Positions 2,215-64,000 of a DNA stretch of 64,000 nt are shown here, piece by piece. The position numbers were made by a program, and so were the translations under genes. Source of the stretch: Gammaproteobacteria bacterium (GTDB taxonomy: Bacteria > Pseudomonadota > Gammaproteobacteria > UBA6002). Every line of letters begins with the position of its first letter. The first letter of the stretch is position 1. The DNA lies in assembly GCA_013697705.1 (NCBI GenBank), contig JACCWJ010000004.1, forward strand, positions 30,938-94,937, given 5' to 3'. The notes beneath the pieces were generated by a model. It was given only the letters and a program-made list of their open reading frames with translations, was not told where the DNA came from and did no database searches.

Positions 2215-2886
2215 TTGATGATTAAGTTTGAACGCGTAAGCAAACGTTATGCAGGGGGCCATCAAGCATTAGCTGACGTTACTTTTCATCTTGAAAAAGG
2301 CGACATGGTCTTTCTAACTGGCCATTCAGGGGCCGGAAAAAGCACGCTCCTTCGCATCATTATGAAAATGGAAGATGCCTCCCAAGGCAACGTCATTATT
2401 AGCGGACAAAACCTCGCTAAAATTACCAAACAGGCCATCGCCGGCCTGCGACAAAGTATCGGAATGATTTTTCAAAATCCCTTGTTATTGCCCCATCGCA
2501 CCGTCTTCGAAAATGTAGCCCTACCACTGTATGTTTCAGGAATGGGCAATCAAGAGATCAGTCATCGGGTTCGGGCTGCATTAGATAAAGTGGGCCTACT
2601 CACGAAGGAAAAATGCTCCCCCACCAGCCTTTCAGCGGGAGAACAACAACGGGTGGGAATTGCTCGGGCGGTCGTAAACCGGCCTGCTATCCTATTGGCA
2701 GATGAGCCCACGGGAAATTTAGATCCGCATCTCTCGACGGAAATCATGAAGCTTTTTGAGCAATTTAATCAAGTCGGGACGACTGTGCTTATTGCAACCC
2801 ATGATCTTGGATTGATCGCTCAAATGAAATATCCAATATTAGGACTGAAAAAAGGTAACTTATCTCAAGGAGTTATCGATGCGTAA
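2215..2886 (+). CDS. ftsE: Cell-division ABC ATPase FtsE
   Basis: Walker A GHSGAGKST, ABC signature LSAGEQQRVGIARA, Walker B LLLADEPTG; operon position. Confidence 0.93.
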   Translation: MMIKFERVSKRYAGGHQALADVTFHLEKGDMVFLTGHSGAGKSTLLRIIMKMEDASQGNVIISGQNLAKITKQAIAGLRQSIGMIFQNPLLLPHRTVFENVALPLYVSGMGNQEISHRVRAALDKVGLLTKEKCSPTSLSAGEQQRVGIARAVVNRPAILLADEPTGNLDPHLSTEIMKLFEQFNQVGTTVLIATHDLGLIAQMKYPILGLKKGNLSQGVIDA

Positions 2887-3847
2887 ACCTGTTACGAAGC
2901 CTGTCAAAAAAAAGCCCCAGGTAAAGAAGTCGACCCCCAGTCGTGGGGACAAACGCTTACTTACCAACCATTACAAGGCTTTCACGGATGCACTTAACCA
3001 AAGCATAAGCAGCCCTCTAAGCACGTTAGTTACTTGCACGATTATTGCTATCACGCTGTTCCTAACATCCACCTTGCTCCTTACGTTGAAATCCCTGCAA
3101 CAGGCTACGGATTATATCAACTCAAGCAGCCAGGTGACTATTTATCTTAAAACCAGTGCTCAAGAAAACACTATTTCAGAATGGCTAAATCAACTTAAAC
3201 AAGATCCCGAAATTAAGGCAGTCACTTATATATCTGCAGCACAAGCCTTGCAGGAATTGGCGCAGCAAAAAGACTTTAGTGGTCTATTAACCAATGTAGA
3301 TCAAAACCCTCTGCCCCCTGTCGTGATGTTAAAACTTAATCCAACTACTCCCTCAAAAATCCAAGACTTAAGTCAAAAACTTCGTACTATGCCATTGGTA
3401 GCTAGCATTAATTTAGATTTTGATTGGTTAAACCGTCTGTCTGCCCTAATACAGTTAGGCAACAGACTCAGCTTGGTGCTTTCCATCGTCTTCAGTATTG
3501 GGGTGCTTTTTATCATTAGCCATGCCATTCAAGGAGCTACCCAAAAAAATCGACAAGAAATGGATATTTTGGAGCTTATTGGCGCATCGACCCCTTATAT
3601 AAGACGTCCCTTTTTATACCTCGGTTTTTTGTTGGGATTGGGAGCAGGCATCATTAGTCTGATATTACTGATTGTCCTTCTTATAGCCCTAAAAACGCCG
3701 CTTTTTGAATTGTTACGTTCTTATAATTTGAGTTACTCCACCCTCTTTAGTCTCTCTAAAGTTTTCTTCTTAACGCTCCTTATAAGTACCAGCCTCGGGT
3801 GGGTGGGGGCTTGGCTGGCCTTTTATAAACATGCTAAAATCTCATAA
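2879..3847 (+). CDS. ftsX: Cell-division permease-like protein FtsX
   Basis: 4-bp overlap with ftsE, ~320 aa, N-terminal basic tail then 4 TM segments typical of FtsX. Confidence 0.88.
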   Translation: MRKPVTKPVKKKPQVKKSTPSRGDKRLLTNHYKAFTDALNQSISSPLSTLVTCTIIAITLFLTSTLLLTLKSLQQATDYINSSSQVTIYLKTSAQENTISEWLNQLKQDPEIKAVTYISAAQALQELAQQKDFSGLLTNVDQNPLPPVVMLKLNPTTPSKIQDLSQKLRTMPLVASINLDFDWLNRLSALIQLGNRLSLVLSIVFSIGVLFIISHAIQGATQKNRQEMDILELIGASTPYIRRPFLYLGFLLGLGAGIISLILLIVLLIALKTPLFELLRSYNLSYSTLFSLSKVFFLTLLISTSLGWVGAWLAFYKHAKIS

Positions 3848-3914: not shown

Positions 3915-4766
3915 ATGGGAAAAAATTTACAAAAATTACAGTTTGCTGCCCCAATAGGCAGTCTAGAAGCCTATATTCATTGGGTAAATCAAATTCCACT
4001 ATTGAGTGTCGAAGAAGAAAAAGAGCTAACTCATAACCTCTATTATAACGGCGATTTAGAGGCAGCTCGTCAACTCATCTTATCGCATCTACGCTTTGTT
4101 ATCCGCGTAGCCAAAGGTTACGGCGGTTATGGCCTCCCCCAGTCTGATCTTATTCAAGAAGGCAATATTGGATTAATGAAGGCGGTTAAACGTTTCAATC
4201 CTGAGGTGGGAGTACGTTTAGTGTCTTTTGCTGTCCATTGGATAAAGGCAGAGATCCATGAGTTTATCCTTAAAAACTGGAAAATTGTCAAAGTCGCCAC
4301 GACTAAAGCTCAACGTAAACTTTTTTTTAATTTACGAAAAGCCTCCAAAAATTTAACCTGGTTTTCCCAAAAAGAAGTTCAGGATCTTGCGAATGATTTA
4401 AAGGTGAGCGAAAAAGATGTGCGTAAGATGGAAGCTAGGCTCCATTTACAAGACGAAACTTTTGATCCCCTGATTCAGGACGACGACAGCGAAAGGCAGT
4501 CTCCAGCACATTATTTAGAAGATCATCGCTATGACCCAGCAAGAACACTCGAGGCGGAAGATTGGTCTGAAAGTCGGGAACAAAAACTTCACCTTGTTAT
4601 GGCGAACCTAGATGAAAGAAGCAAAGATATTCTCCAACAACGCTGGCTAGTGGATAAAAAAGCCACTCTTCATGAACTGGCCAGTAAGTACAACGTCTCA
4701 GCAGAACGCATCCGTCAGCTTGAGAAAAATGCGATGAATAAAATCAAAGAATCCCTTCATAACTAG
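3915..4766 (+). CDS. rpoH: RNA polymerase sigma-32 heat-shock factor RpoH
   Basis: Contains the diagnostic RpoH box QRKLFFNLR plus sigma-70 regions 2 and 4; position downstream of ftsYEX as in E. coli. Confidence 0.93.
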
Positions 4767-4773
4767 TGCACTA

Positions 4774-4839
4774 ATGCAGCGCAGCAGCATCTGATACTTG
4801 CCCGCTAAAGCAAAAACCCGGATACCGCAGCGCTCCATC
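4774..4839. repeat. Two degenerate fragments of the REP-like palindrome family seen at 45710-45892 (atgcagcgcagcagcat at 4774-4790; aaacccggataccgcagcgctccatc at 4814-4839)
   Basis: 12-nt identity (atgcagcgcagc) to the reverse complement of copy A loop and 9-nt identity (aaacccgga) plus ~17/20 further matches to copy A-prime; located just 3' of rpoH. Confidence 0.45.
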
Positions 4840-4928
4840 TAAGCACCCTAAGTGCCCAATAAGTGTCTTGACTTGTAAGTAGTCCATGCTACTGTTAATT
4901 TGTAATAACCAGCAAGAAGGATAATCCA

Positions 4929-25605: not shown

Positions 25606-26046
25606 ATGGCGATGAGCGTACATTTAGATATTGTAAGCGCAGAAGGTGAAATTTTTTCGGGGCGAGCTGAAATGGTAGCCGTCTCAGGCAGTCAGGGGGA
25701 ACTTGGTATCATGCCCGGTCATACTCCCCTGTTAACAACCTTAAAGCCTGGCTTAATAAGAGTCACCTTGCAAGGCGGTAAGCAAGAAGTCTTTTATATT
25801 TCGGGTGGGACCGTTGAAGTGCAGCCTGATATTGTCACGGTATTGGCTGACACTGCAGTTCGAGCTGAAGACTTAGATGAAATAGCCGCGATGGAAGCGC
25901 GCCAGCGTGCAGAGAAAACCGCCTCAAGTCGCAAATCAAATATTGAATATTCCCAAACATTAAGTGAGCTCGCAGATGCAGCGGCAAGACTTCGCGCTAT
26001 CAAACACGTGAAACAAATTCGTAAGAAATTCGGTCGAGGCGAATGA
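25606..26046 (+). CDS. atpC: F0F1 ATP synthase subunit epsilon
   Basis: 146 aa, last gene of operon. Confidence 0.9.
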
Positions 26047-57727: not shown

Positions 57728-57769
57728 GCTAAATGATTGATTCTAAATGATTGATTCTAAATGATTGTT
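57728..57769. repeat. Three tandem copies of a 14-bp unit (ctaaatgattgatt x2 + ctaaatgattgtta)
   Basis: Read directly; lies in 450-bp non-coding gap upstream of candidate sRNA. Confidence 0.8.
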
Positions 57770-57904
57770 AAATTCACAGGTATTTTTCAATACTGTAATT
57801 TTTACTTTGGTATCTTGTAACTCTAGCTGATTGCATTAGAGTGCCCATGGAATTGGGACGGAGTGGCTAGGATAGCAGCATAAGCATTTGCTTGTGGTAG
57901 ATAC

Positions 57905-58025
57905 CAAATGGAAATTTATGGTTTGCTCAGGGAGTGAGAGCTAAGCAAAGGAGTGTTGTGTCAGTTTTCAGGCAAGGATTGCCTGGAGGGGGCGGTTGAT
58001 CATTCAATTGCCTCCTTTTTTATTT
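57905..58025 (+). ncRNA. Candidate CsrA/RsmA-sequestering sRNA (CsrB/RsmY/RsmZ-like): five GGA motifs, stem-loops presenting GGA, strong terminator
   Basis: GGA at 57910, 57931 (gcuc-AGGGAguga-gagc), 57950 (CAAAGGAGUG), 57976 (ggca-AGGAu-ugcc hairpin), 57985; terminator stem 57985-58015 (ggcgguug/caauugcc, G-U wobbles) + U8 at 58016-58023; no ORF; 5' end uncertain. Confidence 0.45.
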
Positions 58026-58076
58026 AAAACTAGCTTTTCAGTGTTCATTTTGTACAATAACTCTTTCCCCTAAGTT

Positions 58077-58472
58077 TTGAGTTGTTTTATGACAGATTGG
58101 ACCTTTCTTATTCCTCTCTTCGGTCGTTTCTTACTTGCTTCTTATTTTTTAAAAGCAGGGATCAACAATGCACTTCATTGGCACAAAGTCTTAGGCTTAA
58201 TTAAATTCAAGAAAATTCCCTTTCCTAATCTAGTCTTATTTGCCGTAATTGCCACGCAAATTGTAGGCTCGCTGGCTATTATTTTTAATTATTACGCTGT
58301 CATTGCCTCGATTGCCTTAATTATTTTTACCTTGGTCGCTAATTTTTTAGTGTGTAATTATTGGAAAATGGAGGGAGTACAGCGCAGAAATGTCTCTTTT
58401 ATCTTTTACGCTAACATTGCAGTAATAGGTGCATTATTGCTTATTACTTCTATGGCGCCTGGAATTTACTAA
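58077..58472 (+). CDS. DoxX-family inner-membrane protein
   Basis: 131 aa, four TM helices, WTFLIPLFGRFLLASYFLKAG N-terminal pattern typical of DoxX; start may be ATG 58089. Confidence 0.7.
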   Translation: MSCFMTDWTFLIPLFGRFLLASYFLKAGINNALHWHKVLGLIKFKKIPFPNLVLFAVIATQIVGSLAIIFNYYAVIASIALIIFTLVANFLVCNYWKMEGVQRRNVSFIFYANIAVIGALLLITSMAPGIY

Positions 58473-58642
58473 TGCAGAAACGTTTTATAGCAGGTGCGAT
58501 GTGCCCTGCCTGCAAATCACTTGATAAAATTTGTTTGGAAAAATTACCCACAGAGCACAGGGTGGAGTGCGTTAGTTGTGGATATACAGATACTCGACTC
58601 TTAACACCGATGACTGATAACTTAAATGGGACTCCAAAATGA
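58472..58642 (+). CDS. YheV-family zinc-ribbon protein (DUF2387)
   Basis: 56-aa ORF MQKRFIAGAMCPACKSLDK...VECVSCGY with two CxxC pairs, aligns with E. coli YheV (KRFIAGAKCPKC...VECVKCGH); start overlaps DoxX stop, stop overlaps next start; missed by ORF track (<60 aa). Confidence 0.65.
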   Translation: MQKRFIAGAMCPACKSLDKICLEKLPTEHRVECVSCGYTDTRLLTPMTDNLNGTPK

Positions 58643-59427
58643 AAAAAATATTAATAGGCCTCTTTCTTGTTTCGTCAATGCAATGTGCTCTGGGATATAA
58701 CCCCCAAGATTTGAAAAGACTGCAGGAAACTTGCAGCTGTCCAGGCGGGGATTTATCAAATGCTAACCTTTCAAACTTCAAATTAGGCGATAAAAGCACG
58801 CTAAATATTCAGAAAGTAAAGATGGATAATAAGGGTTTCATTATCTGTAACATTTCAAACGCGAATTTTTCAGGCGCAAATCTACAAAATGCTTATTTCA
58901 GCCCATCGGATTTCGGGCCGGGAATTCATGAAAAAGTGGGCCAGATTATTATGCAACGAACCAATTTTAGTCGGGCAAATCTAGCGAATGCACATTTAAA
59001 CGCCGTTATGAGCGACTATGCTAATTTCGAAAATGCTAATCTCAAAAACGCAACTATTATGAAGGGAGCTTCTTTTAAAAACTGCAATTTTAGCCATGCT
59101 CAAATGAACAATATTTCAGTTTCCCCTCCTATGGGTGGTTGTGGTGCTATGTTTACTTTCAGTAATTTTTCACATGCTAATTTAATAAACAGCAAACTTA
59201 ATGCCGATTTCACCCAAGCAAATTTCAGCTTTGCAGATTTGATGAAGGCACAACTTACCCCTTGCGATGAAGATCCTAAGAATAGCTTTAAAGGCACAAA
59301 TTTTTTGAGTGCTAATTTAACGGGAACGACTTTTAATAATGAAAATCTAACTGAAGATCAGCTTATTAATGCAAAGTTATGCCATACAAAATTATCAAGC
59401 AGTATCAGTAATCGGGATTGTCAATAA
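58639..59427 (+). CDS. Secreted pentapeptide-repeat protein
   Basis: Signal peptide MKKILIGLFLVSSMQCALG; >30 tandem A(N/D)L/F-xx pentapeptides (ANLSN FKLGD ... ANLQN AYFSP ... ANLAN AHLNA ... ANLKN ATIMK ...). Confidence 0.85.
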   Translation: MKKILIGLFLVSSMQCALGYNPQDLKRLQETCSCPGGDLSNANLSNFKLGDKSTLNIQKVKMDNKGFIICNISNANFSGANLQNAYFSPSDFGPGIHEKVGQIIMQRTNFSRANLANAHLNAVMSDYANFENANLKNATIMKGASFKNCNFSHAQMNNISVSPPMGGCGAMFTFSNFSHANLINSKLNADFTQANFSFADLMKAQLTPCDEDPKNSFKGTNFLSANLTGTTFNNENLTEDQLINAKLCHTKLSSSISNRDCQ

Positions 59428-59441
59428 CTGAGATTTGGGAG

Positions 59442-59473
59442 GTCCTGGGTGACACGCGATGTTATTCCAGGAC
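59442..59473. other. Hairpin (gtcctgg ... ccaggac) between convergent pentapeptide-repeat gene and PNP gene; possible bidirectional terminator
   Basis: 7-bp stem with 18-nt loop followed by acgtttt on + strand; weak. Confidence 0.3.
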
Positions 59474-59480
59474 ACGTTTT

Positions 59481-60338
59481 CTAGGTGCAGACATCAGAAT
59501 CTACTTGCCGATTCGACACGGTAATTTTATTAATCAGTGCAATAATTAATTGACTTAAGTCTTCAGCCGCCATCTTTGCAACTCGCAGAACATTCTCATG
59601 TGTTAGGAATTCATCGCTCATTCCTACCGCCATATTCGTTATCGTTGAGATCGCTAACACTTTCATATTACAGTGCCTGGCAATAATAACTTCGGGTACG
59701 GTAGACATTCCCACCATATCCGCGCCCATAATTTTAAATGCCCGAATTTCTGCTGGGGTTTCATAACACGGTCCTAACGTAGCGAGGTATACGCCCGTCG
59801 AAATATTGATATTGAGTTCAGAAGCAGTTTGAGAAGCTATTTCCATGAATTCACTATCGTATGCATTTTGTAAAGAAGGGAAACGGGGACCAAAAGAGTC
59901 ATCGTTAGCGCCTACCAAGGGATTTTGAAACTGAAAATTAATGTGATCACTAATTAATACCAAATTACCCGGAGTGACTTCCTTTCTGAGGGACGCCGCA
60001 GCATTGGTTAAAATGATAGACTCGCAGCCGAGAAGTTTTAAGGTGCGAATAGGCGTTGAGATAGCAGCGCTATTCTTCCCCTCATAGGAATGCGAACGAC
60101 CTTGAAGACATGCAATTGGCACGCCATTGAGTAATCCTAATATTAAATTACCTTGGTGCCCAGCGACGCTCGTATCACTAAACCCGGGAATTTCACTATA
60201 GGGAATAACTATAGGGTTATTGAGCATGTCTGCAAGTTTGTTTAGGCCTGAACCTAACACAAGGGCCAATTGAGGCGAGAATTTGCCAGCACGTTTTTTA
60301 ATTAACTCTGCTGCTTGATGGGGAGAAGTAATATTCAT
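59481..60338 (-). CDS. Purine nucleoside phosphorylase (PNP/MTAP family, PunA/XapA type)
   Basis: 285 aa; LALVLGSGL, phosphate-binding HSYEG, MSTVPEVI motifs. Confidence 0.85.
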   Translation of the reverse strand: MNITSPHQAAELIKKRAGKFSPQLALVLGSGLNKLADMLNNPIVIPYSEIPGFSDTSVAGHQGNLILGLLNGVPIACLQGRSHSYEGKNSAAISTPIRTLKLLGCESIILTNAAASLRKEVTPGNLVLISDHINFQFQNPLVGANDDSFGPRFPSLQNAYDSEFMEIASQTASELNINISTGVYLATLGPCYETPAEIRAFKIMGADMVGMSTVPEVIIARHCNMKVLAISTITNMAVGMSDEFLTHENVLRVAKMAAEDLSQLIIALINKITVSNRQVDSDVCT

Positions 60339-62897: not shown

Positions 62898-64000
62898 TTA
62901 AGAATAAATTCCAGCTTGTTTTAACAGAGCTTCCACAGACGGTTCACGTCCTCTAAATGCAATGAAAAGTTCCATAGGATCTTTTGCGCCGCCCTGCTCT
63001 AAAATATTTTCCATAAATGATCGTCCAGTTTCTTCATCGAAAATACCCTGCTCCGTAAATTTTGAGAAAGCGTCGCTTGAGAGAACTTCTGCCCATTTGT
63101 AACTATAATATCCCGCTGCGTATCCCCCAGAGAAAATATGAGAGAAGCCATGTTGAAAACGATTAAACTCTGGAATAGGAATGACGCACACTTGTTCGCG
63201 TGCTTCATCTAAAAATCGTTGTATTTGTTGTTCTTCTGCTTCATTGAAAAACATATGTAGGTGGAAGTCAAAAATCGCAAATTCAAGTTGTCGCACCATT
63301 TGCATGGCTGAATGAAAATTACGAGCTCGAATCATTTTGTCGAACAAATCTTGCGGCAGTGCCTCACCTGTTTTGTAATGACAGGCCATTAAATCAAGTG
63401 CAGGTTTTTCCCAGCACCAATTTTCTAAAAACTGACTCGGTAGTTCTACGGCATCCCATGGTACACCATTGATTCCAGAGACTTCAGCATAATCAATCTT
63501 GGTGAGCAAATGGTGTAGTCCGTGGCCAAATTCATGAAACAGTGTTTGCACATCGTCATGCGTAAAAAGAGCAGGGTCACCGCCGACAGGTCGGTTAAAA
63601 TTACAGGTTAAATAAGCGATAGGCGTTTGAACGTGCGAGTTAATGAGCCGCCTAACGCGACACTCATCCATCCAGGCGCCGCCTCTTTTGTTGGGGCGTG
63701 CATATAAGTCCAAATAAAATTGTCCACGAAGTTCGCCATCTTGACCGTAAATATTAAAAAATTTAACATCGGGATGCCAAACTTCTACTCCTTGTACTTC
63801 ATGGATAACGATACCAAATAACTTATTTACTATTTTGAAAAGGCCTTGCACGACTTGATCTTCGGGAAAATAGGGTCTGAGGTCTTCTTGTGAAATGTTG
63901 TAGCGGAATTCACGCAATTTTTCGCTGTAATAAGCAACGTCCCACGCAGCTATTTTTTCAATGGCGTATTTTTCTTTAACGAATCCATTGAGTTCATTAT
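62898..64000 (-). CDS. prlC: Oligopeptidase A (M3 family), C-terminal ~365 aa; gene continues beyond window end
   Basis: HEFGHGLHH zinc motif; hand translation upstream of ORF-track start (which is an internal TTG) continues ...AWDVAYYSEKLREFRYNISQEDLRPYFPE aligning with E. coli PrlC; open to position 64000. Confidence 0.88.
   Translation of the reverse strand, partial: NELNGFVKEKYAIEKIAAWDVAYYSEKLREFRYNISQEDLRPYFPEDQVVQGLFKIVNKLFGIVIHEVQGVEVWHPDVKFFNIYGQDGELRGQFYLDLYARPNKRGGAWMDECRVRRLINSHVQTPIAYLTCNFNRPVGGDPALFTHDDVQTLFHEFGHGLHHLLTKIDYAEVSGINGVPWDAVELPSQFLENWCWEKPALDLMACHYKTGEALPQDLFDKMIRARNFHSAMQMVRQLEFAIFDFHLHMFFNEAEEQQIQRFLDEAREQVCVIPIPEFNRFQHGFSHIFSGGYAAGYYSYKWAEVLSSDAFSKFTEQGIFDEETGRSFMENILEQGGAKDPMELFIAFRGREPSVEALLKQAGIYS

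Follow-up and report, generated by a model that had tools for sequence, protein, structure and literature searches.

A candidate three-gene operon with a DoxX-YheV core and a separable, putatively exported pentapeptide-repeat protein in an uncultured Coxiellaceae-like gammaproteobacterium

Do three genes that overlap from stop codon to start codon form one functional unit, or do they simply lie side by side? The question is raised by a locus in a 64,000-nucleotide (nt) stretch of contig JACCWJ010000004.1, from an uncultured gammaproteobacterium, which is referred to here as the window. In this locus the genes for a DoxX-family membrane protein, a YheV zinc-ribbon protein and a putatively exported pentapeptide-repeat protein (PRP) follow one another on the forward strand. 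An earlier note, made from the sequence alone, proposed that the three are co-translated as one unit and that their tight coupling suggests a functional module. We propose instead, with about even confidence, that the locus is a three-gene operon of a Coxiellaceae-like bacterium in which DoxX and YheV form a quinone- or redox-linked core and the exported PRP is a separable passenger. The trio found in the window would then be one of several lineage-specific variants of an arrangement of known gene families.

Direct reading of the sequence confirms both junctions. At TAATG (58470-58474) the DoxX stop codon TAA (58470-58472) runs into the YheV start codon ATG (58472-58474), and at ATGA (58639-58642) the PRP start codon ATG (58639-58641) overlaps the YheV stop codon TGA (58640-58642). 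The three open reading frames (ORFs) are genuine members of the families to which they had been assigned, and all scores exceed the curated cut-offs: DoxX matches PF07681 with 40.2 bits (gathering cut-off 23.6, E 5.4e-10), YheV matches DUF2387 (PF09526) with 55.7 bits (cut-off 25.9) and TIGR02443 with 52.4 bits (cut-off 49.45), and the PRP matches Pentapeptide (PF00805) with 74.6 bits (cut-off 20.2, E 4e-21) over 6 stretches. Two details required correction. DoxX does not start at TTG 58077, as first read, but at ATG 58089 (MTDW...), where all orthologues begin with MTDW or MSDW; the protein is 100% identical, with the same start, to GenBank entry MBA2653639.1 ('MAG: DoxX family protein [Gammaproteobacteria bacterium]'). 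YheV had been described as a zinc ribbon missed by the ORF track; the zinc ribbon is real, and annotation had not missed it, as GenBank carries it in the same record as MBA2653640.1.

The overlaps by themselves are weak evidence for a common function, because, among the 42 pairs of same-strand neighbours in the window, 7 overlap and 16 lie no more than 15 nt apart (simple ORF calls), and because an identical ATGA stop/start overlap at 26043-26046 joins atpC, encoding the epsilon subunit of ATP synthase, to the functionally unrelated glmU. Distant PRPs of the same type likewise overlap another gene, waaA, by 4 nt. The genome is compact, about 91% coding by greedy ORF calls. These figures favour adjacency without functional linkage, in which the three genes would be neighbours by descent in a compact genome, the overlaps by-products and the proteins independent of one another. 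We consider this account possible, if somewhat doubtful, and the tightness of the coupling does not bear the functional weight that had been placed on it.

Conservation of the arrangement is more informative. Nine independent, related loci were compared, all from Coxiellaceae-like metagenome bins, one of them named Coxiellaceae bacterium UBA6002; orthologues in these bins are 54-73% identical, and YheV ORFs missed by gene callers were recovered separately. The window and L003/L004 share the order rsmE, gap, DoxX-YheV-PRP, followed by MTAP on the opposite strand. In L013 a gene for a type-II NADH dehydrogenase (NDH-2, ndh) stands between YheV and PRP in an otherwise identical order, and L005, L006 and L007 carry msrB, gap, DoxX-YheV-NDH2-PRP. 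L011 reads rsmE, gap, DoxX-YheV, MTAP on the opposite strand, with no PRP, and L012 has DoxX-YheV followed by a ketoacyl synthase gene, also with no PRP. Finally, in L010/L001, 4.3 kb of mobile-looking DNA replaces YheV between DoxX and PRP. DoxX and YheV thus abut in eight of the nine loci, with spacings of -4 to +2 nt in seven of the eight and +13 nt in the eighth, and the YheV stop codon overlaps the next start by 4 nt (ATGA) in all six loci where PRP or ndh comes next. Retention of this geometry at only 38-73% protein identity exceeds chance. Against mere adjacency, the abutment survives changes of the flanks, both upstream (rsmE or msrB) and downstream (PRP, ndh, ketoacyl synthase or MTAP), and the YheV stop keeps its ATGA overlap regardless of the gene that comes next. 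The conserved DoxX-YheV unit is probably functional.

The PRP is more loosely attached. All three genes are directly adjacent in two lineages only, the window and L003/L004. The refutation that the earlier note named, a neighbourhood conserved nowhere else, is escaped within one clade, where part of the neighbourhood is conserved; adjacency of all three genes wherever the system occurs is not seen, and an obligate trio is not what is conserved. A single three-protein module, for instance a trans-envelope one in which YheV and DoxX act on or with a periplasmic PRP, is accordingly unlikely. It would agree with the presence of the PRP at the same locus and in the same orientation in seven of the nine loci, on both sides of the midpoint root of a crude neighbour-joining tree of DoxX and MTAP, and with its direct coupling to YheV in the two lineages named, whose PRPs are only 55% identical. 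The grouping in this tree makes the PRP look ancestral at the locus. However, the PRP has been lost in L011 and L012 while DoxX-YheV persists, it survives in L010 despite the loss of YheV there, four loci have ndh in between, and homologous exported PRPs with cysteine caps have unrelated neighbours elsewhere. For the one secreted PRP that has been characterized, which acts at the outer membrane, no DoxX or YheV partner is reported (PMC12864828).

Some of the variable DNA has features of its own. The insertion in L010 (6380-10680, equivalent to ~680-5000 of L001) encodes a 358-residue protein of (QQGM)n repeats, a response-regulator fragment, a 522-residue GNAT-GrpB-P-loop kinase fusion and a HicAB toxin-antitoxin pair, and ParE/RHH follows the PRP in L010. 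The ketoacyl synthase gene after YheV in L012 (5607-6952) consists of two overlapping ORFs (364 and 97 residues), which probably reflects a frameshift or a pseudogene.

The DoxX of the window resembles the DoxX/DoxD family in its PF07681 match and in its predicted form, a small inner-membrane protein of four helices. Hydropathy places hydrophobic segments at residues 5-25, 48-67, 71-89 and 105-122, and the AlphaFold2 (AF2) model has four long helices (4-29, 46-65, 70-92 and 99-122) and one short amphipathic helix (predicted local distance difference test, pLDDT, 77). The most conserved parts are two basic loops, 26-47 (charge +4) and 90-104 (+3/-1), which are predicted by the positive-inside rule to be cytoplasmic. 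The orthologue alignment contains 33 invariant positions, including those of a CNYW.MEG.QRRN loop. The subfamily is narrow and divergent, with 16 relatives retrieved, and a profile scan of one genome per species returned 2 loci only, reflecting either this narrowness or over-strict patterns. Two DoxX matches of 166-171 residues (P0127 and P0133) were considered as DoxX-YheV fusions and rejected as N-terminal over-extensions.

Several DoxX systems are known. The DoxDA protein of Acidianus is a thiosulfate:quinone oxidoreductase, and DoxX is reportedly linked to the GIG metal-response operon of Legionella. As summarized in a preprint, DoxX of mycobacteria, among them Mycobacterium tuberculosis, is part of a membrane redox complex with SodA and SseA (bioRxiv 10.1101/2025.04.09.647911). 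The present gene differs from all of these in having no DoxA, SodA, SseA or DUF2282/MNIO/DUF2063 neighbour. Membership of the DoxDA and DoxX-SodA-SseA systems was rejected for want of the partner genes, and assignment to the HvfX or GIG-bufferin type was rejected on score (NF050144, 25.5 bits; cut-off 80) and on the absence of DUF2282/MNIO/DUF2063 neighbours in the window and in the related loci.

At 56 residues, YheV of the window is shorter than most of its relatives (60-90 residues). Positions F5, I6, A7, G8, A9, C11, P12, C14, C33 and C36 are invariant in nine sequences that include E. coli YheV, with which it shares an alignable FIAGAxCPxC...CxxC zinc ribbon, a small stand-alone form and a gene position directly after a membrane-protein gene. 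It differs in that DoxX is the upstream gene, an arrangement met in this clade only, whereas yheV typically lies downstream of prlC or kefGB. In E. coli, kefGB-yheV is reported to be one ArcA-repressed operon, and hence responsive to quinone redox state (PMC3798270). A profile search of the PDB with YheV returned generic zinc ribbons only (Rpb9, aIF2-beta and TFIIB), and a word-index homologue search returned the query itself alone. The literature found on YheV/DUF2387 does not address its function. An M3 oligopeptidase (PrlC-like) gene lies on the reverse strand at 62898-63917, running off the end of the ORF list, 3.5 kb downstream of the trio; it may be what is left of an ancestral linkage between prlC and yheV.

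A possible role for the pair comes from the gene interposed in the sister lineages L005, L006, L007 and L013. It encodes a 428-residue type-II NADH:quinone oxidoreductase, with B. subtilis YjlD (1e-36) and S. aureus NDH-2 (1e-32) as best sequence matches in the PDB, and it contains FAD and NAD motifs and a C-terminal amphipathic tail. The ndh-bearing loci group together in the DoxX and MTAP tree, in which the window falls beside L011. The presence of this quinone reductase gene alongside recalls the quinone links of the DoxX/DoxD family. Because NDH-2 lies behind YheV with an AUGA overlap in the sister clade, and because relatives of DoxX are associated with quinones and redox processes, the core pair would most likely act on or with the quinone pool. 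DoxX would span the inner membrane with four helices and expose its two conserved basic loops to the cytoplasm, and YheV, a cytoplasmic Cys4 zinc ribbon, would be its likely partner on that side; together they would act at the membrane in redox homeostasis.

The limits of the putative operon can be drawn on both sides. Upstream, a 65-nt spacer separates the terminator of a small RNA (sRNA) candidate from the DoxX ATG. Approximately 30 nt 5' of this ATG lies a block like an extended -10 box, TTTTTTGTAAAATA-like, which is present in most of nine aligned upstream regions and provides a candidate -10 element for the operon promoter (Table 1). Downstream, the stop codons of PRP and MTAP (PNP_UDP_1) converge on a 53-nt gap that contains a hairpin of -23.2 kcal/mol (z = -3.1; none of 200 shuffled sequences folds as well) followed by UUUUCU. 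From its predicted folding, this hairpin is probably a bidirectional terminator that closes the operon. With a terminator upstream and a hairpin downstream, the simplest reading of the three genes is a single transcription unit. YheV and PRP both lack a good Shine-Dalgarno sequence, which makes their translation by termination-reinitiation coupling plausible. One mRNA would start in the 65-nt spacer, past the sRNA terminator, and most translation of YheV and PRP would come from ribosomes that reinitiate after terminating on the gene before, which would tie the output of both to translation of DoxX. Of the co-translation originally claimed, the overlaps stand as observed, and co-transcription and translational coupling are probable.

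Table 1. Positions and evidence for the features of the locus (window coordinates unless a related locus is named)
Feature	Position	Strand	Basis
DoxX-family inner-membrane protein, 127 amino acids, 4 predicted transmembrane helices	58089..58472	+	Pfam match, orthologue alignment, AF2
YheV/DUF2387 zinc-ribbon protein, 56 amino acids, FIAGAxCPxC...CxxC	58472..58642	+	Pfam, TIGRFAM, GenBank MBA2653640.1
Putatively exported PRP, 262 amino acids, sPRP/YjbI-like (sPRP, secreted PRP)	58639..59427	+	Pfam, orthologue alignment, AF2, Foldseek, PDB profile search
Predicted Sec signal peptide, MKKILIGLFLVSSMQCALG then YN	58639..58695	+	n/h/c pattern, low AF2 confidence in this segment
Candidate -10 region of operon promoter, TTGTACAAT	58050..58058	+	Conserved block upstream
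Stable hairpin, probable bidirectional terminator and operon 3' boundary	59433..59486	.	RNA folding
CsrB/RsmY/RsmZ-like sRNA candidate, outside the trio, 5' boundary	57836..58024	+	GGA motifs, conservation, terminator
sRNA candidate in L003	4184-4370		
sRNA candidate in L005	~2728-2958		
sRNA candidate in L006	~2883-3075		
sRNA candidate in L007	2121-2345		
sRNA candidate in L010	5688-5921		
sRNA candidate in L013	~4697-4925		

Several points weigh against a functional, quinone-linked DoxX-YheV core in a three-gene operon. All nine loci come from one clade, and the adjacency could be inherited synteny rather than a product of selection. In agreement with independent neighbours, the content of the locus varies among relatives through ndh, ketoacyl synthase, mobile insertions and loss of the PRP; L010 (MAG MFD01633.bin.2.38) has kept DoxX and PRP and lost YheV at the locus. 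The normal neighbour of YheV is moreover PrlC or KefB. A scan of metagenomes with a YheV profile gave 80 loci, 76 of them with an upstream neighbour; an M3 oligopeptidase (PrlC-like, oligopeptidase A, ~690 residues) stands directly upstream on the same strand in 49 of these 76, and in none of the 80 does this DoxX adjoin YheV. The E. coli order kefG-kefB-yheV provides the alternative usual partner. No YheV fusion was found among the 150 best relatives (49-122 residues; phmmer, 1.84 billion representative proteins), all of which are stand-alone, and Rosetta-stone support is thus lacking for DoxX, PrlC and KefB as partners. The quinone link is drawn by association only: a search of the window found no NDH-2 gene, nor a second copy of DoxX, YheV or PRP, and the crude tree is compatible with either gain or loss of ndh. 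Sequence and fold searches of the PDB gave no significant solved structure for DoxX, and its non-significant matches, NACHO/TMEM35A and vitamin-K carboxylase, are leads only. A generic sigma-70 scan found no convincing operon promoter and did not pick up the conserved -10-like block. The partnership, localisation and expression of the three products are themselves predictions from sequence and context.

The passenger itself resembles a class that has recently been recognized. Its Sec export, proposed from the outset, is borne out as a prediction: a signal-peptide-like N-terminus, called heuristically from the pattern of n-, h- and c-regions and an AxA/AxG site, ends in an A-x-G/A site before Y20 (ALG|YN) and is conserved in nine of nine orthologues. 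The AF2 model is a beta-helix (pLDDT 91.3; predicted template-modelling score, pTM, 0.86) in which low confidence is confined to residues 1-20, and Foldseek matches it with probability 1.00 to HetL, Np275/276, Qnr and MfpA; its PDB neighbours further include designed beta-solenoids and, as significant fold matches, lumenal Rfr proteins. Cysteines mark both ends of the helix. The N-terminal cap TCSCPxC is conserved (C32 and C34), its third cysteine being replaced by glycine in the window protein, and so is the C-terminal cap LC...SNRDC (C248 and C261); the orthologue alignment shows further conserved cysteines at C168, at C209 and, by the N-terminal cap, at C70. The protein ends ...SNRDCQ, one residue past the last cysteine, and orthologues end within 0-5 residues. 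After export by Sec and cleavage behind Gly19, the mature protein would form a beta-helix of about ten coils, with cysteines stapling each end.

The PRP reading frame is intact, and the alignment covers all of it. The exact protein sequence is absent from a collection of 15 billion proteins in which its two upstream neighbours from the same MAG, MBA2653639.1 and MBA2653640.1, are present, and the closest homologue found is not above 60% identical. The public record may either lack an annotation for this gene or mark it as a pseudogene. More distant homologues (P0009, P0010, P0012, P0013 and P0085; 27-34% identity) share the signal peptide and both cysteine caps, and therefore define a wider family of exported PRPs. 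The genes stand alone in L008 and L096, and those of P0013 and P0010 lie directly behind the Kdo-transferase gene waaA and are followed by a short-chain dehydrogenase/reductase gene (L095, 3751-5873; L097, 3748-5885). Such PRPs therefore join operons of different kinds, and the waaA neighbourhood hints at a connection with lipopolysaccharide and the outer membrane that would match work on YjbI (PMC12864828).

Periplasmic PRPs had been called unusual, a statement that is now outdated. The sPRPs, or 'YjbI orthologs', are a conserved and functionally studied class with a secretion signal, two cysteine pairs flanking the beta-helix and a charged C-terminal tail (PMC12864828, EMBO J 2026). The YjbI of Caulobacter works at the outer membrane, where it serves as a sentinel of envelope stress, its charged tail spans that membrane and is stated to be required for function, and the lumenal Rfr structure 2G0Y is treated as a YjbI orthologue (PMC12864828). 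PedD is an extracytoplasmic PRP encoded in the Pseudomonas ped cluster beside periplasmic quinoprotein dehydrogenases (PMC12997753). The PRP of the window resembles the YjbI type in its secretion signal (heuristic), its quadrilateral beta-helix and the conserved cysteine pairs flanking it, as read from the alignment, and it gives significant fold matches to the beta-helices of lumenal Rfr proteins of cyanobacteria and plants (PDB 2G0Y, 2F3L, 2O6W and 3N90). Compared with C. crescentus YjbI, by the described features of the latter, it has no charged C-terminal tail, it carries the extra cysteines C70, C168 and C209 and three conserved loop insertions, and its gene sits in the DoxX-YheV operon. 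With the cytoplasmic DNA-mimic PRPs (Qnr, MfpA, AlbG and McbG) it shares the Rfr beta-helix fold, but its signal peptide and conserved cysteines would place it outside the cytoplasm, away from gyrase. A gyrase-protecting PRP of the Qnr or MfpA type was rejected on the signal peptide and on the NCBIfam scores (Qnr 41.7 against 240; MfpA 21 against 360). The protein would most simply act in the envelope like the YjbI-type sPRPs, and would not necessarily require DoxX or YheV to do so.

Could the PRP act on a host instead? In an intracellular bacterium it might be a secreted protein aimed at the host, which is exported by Sec, leaves the cell through, for example, a type II system or in vesicles, and only rides on the DoxX-YheV transcript. 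Contigs of the relatives are rich in ankyrin-repeat genes, which are typical of host-associated Legionellales; the effectors PipB2, NleL and SopA are among the PRP matches, and the conserved cysteines suit an extracytoplasmic destination. However, no secretion route beyond Sec was identified, the closest described class (sPRP/YjbI and lumenal Rfr) resides in the envelope or the lumen (PMC12864828), and the proximity of the family to the lipopolysaccharide gene waaA fits an envelope role. We regard a host-directed role as highly improbable, and retain the envelope-resident passenger.

The 460-nt gap upstream of DoxX contains a second element, outside the trio. An unannotated, GGA-rich stretch of about 190 nt (57836-58024) is conserved in all nine related loci, with rsmE or msrB upstream alike. 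An invariant hairpin near its end, CAGGCA-AGGAU-UGCCUG, presents GGA in the loop, and a terminator scan identified an intrinsic terminator with a T-run (57985-58018), the stem of which shows compensatory changes in four pairs. The window element has 9 GGA motifs; across the relatives the number ranges from 3 to 12, six of the nine loci having 8-12 and the remaining three 3-6. A TTAGAGTGC motif is conserved at the 5' end, with CTTGTA ~25 nt upstream of TTAGAGTGC. The element gives a weak match to CsrB of Rfam (15.7 bits, E 0.033), below the gathering threshold, and the whole window gives no Rfam match at gathering thresholds. By its sequence features it looks like a CsrA-sponge sRNA, comparable to RsmY and RsmZ of Legionella and CbsR12 of Coxiella (bioRxiv 10.1101/679134). 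The spacer between rsmE and this candidate also contains a tandem direct repeat of TAAATGATTGATTC, in approximately 2.7 copies, at 57730-57767 on the forward strand. The sRNA candidate, a by-product of the analysis, is arguably more useful than the trio, as a handle on CsrA regulation in uncultured Coxiellaceae.

As it stands, the locus is a lineage-specific arrangement of three known families, of use for annotation and no surprise to specialists. With the PRP, the recently recognized sPRPs gain a Coxiellaceae branch, one without the tail said to be essential in Caulobacter YjbI. If the pairing of DoxX and YheV is functional, it would be the first hint from gene context at what YheV/DUF2387, a family widespread in Gammaproteobacteria, does, and would connect a subfamily of DoxX with NDH-2 and the quinone pool. 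A bolder scheme, to which we assign only a slim chance, is that DoxX-YheV is a new unit of membrane and cytoplasm that senses or handles the respiratory quinone pool, with NDH-2 built into the operon in sister lineages, and that the translationally coupled, exported YjbI-like beta-helix adjusts the envelope. If true, this would provide an inside-out link from respiratory redox state to the composition of the outer envelope in intracellular Coxiellaceae, and the first function for YheV.

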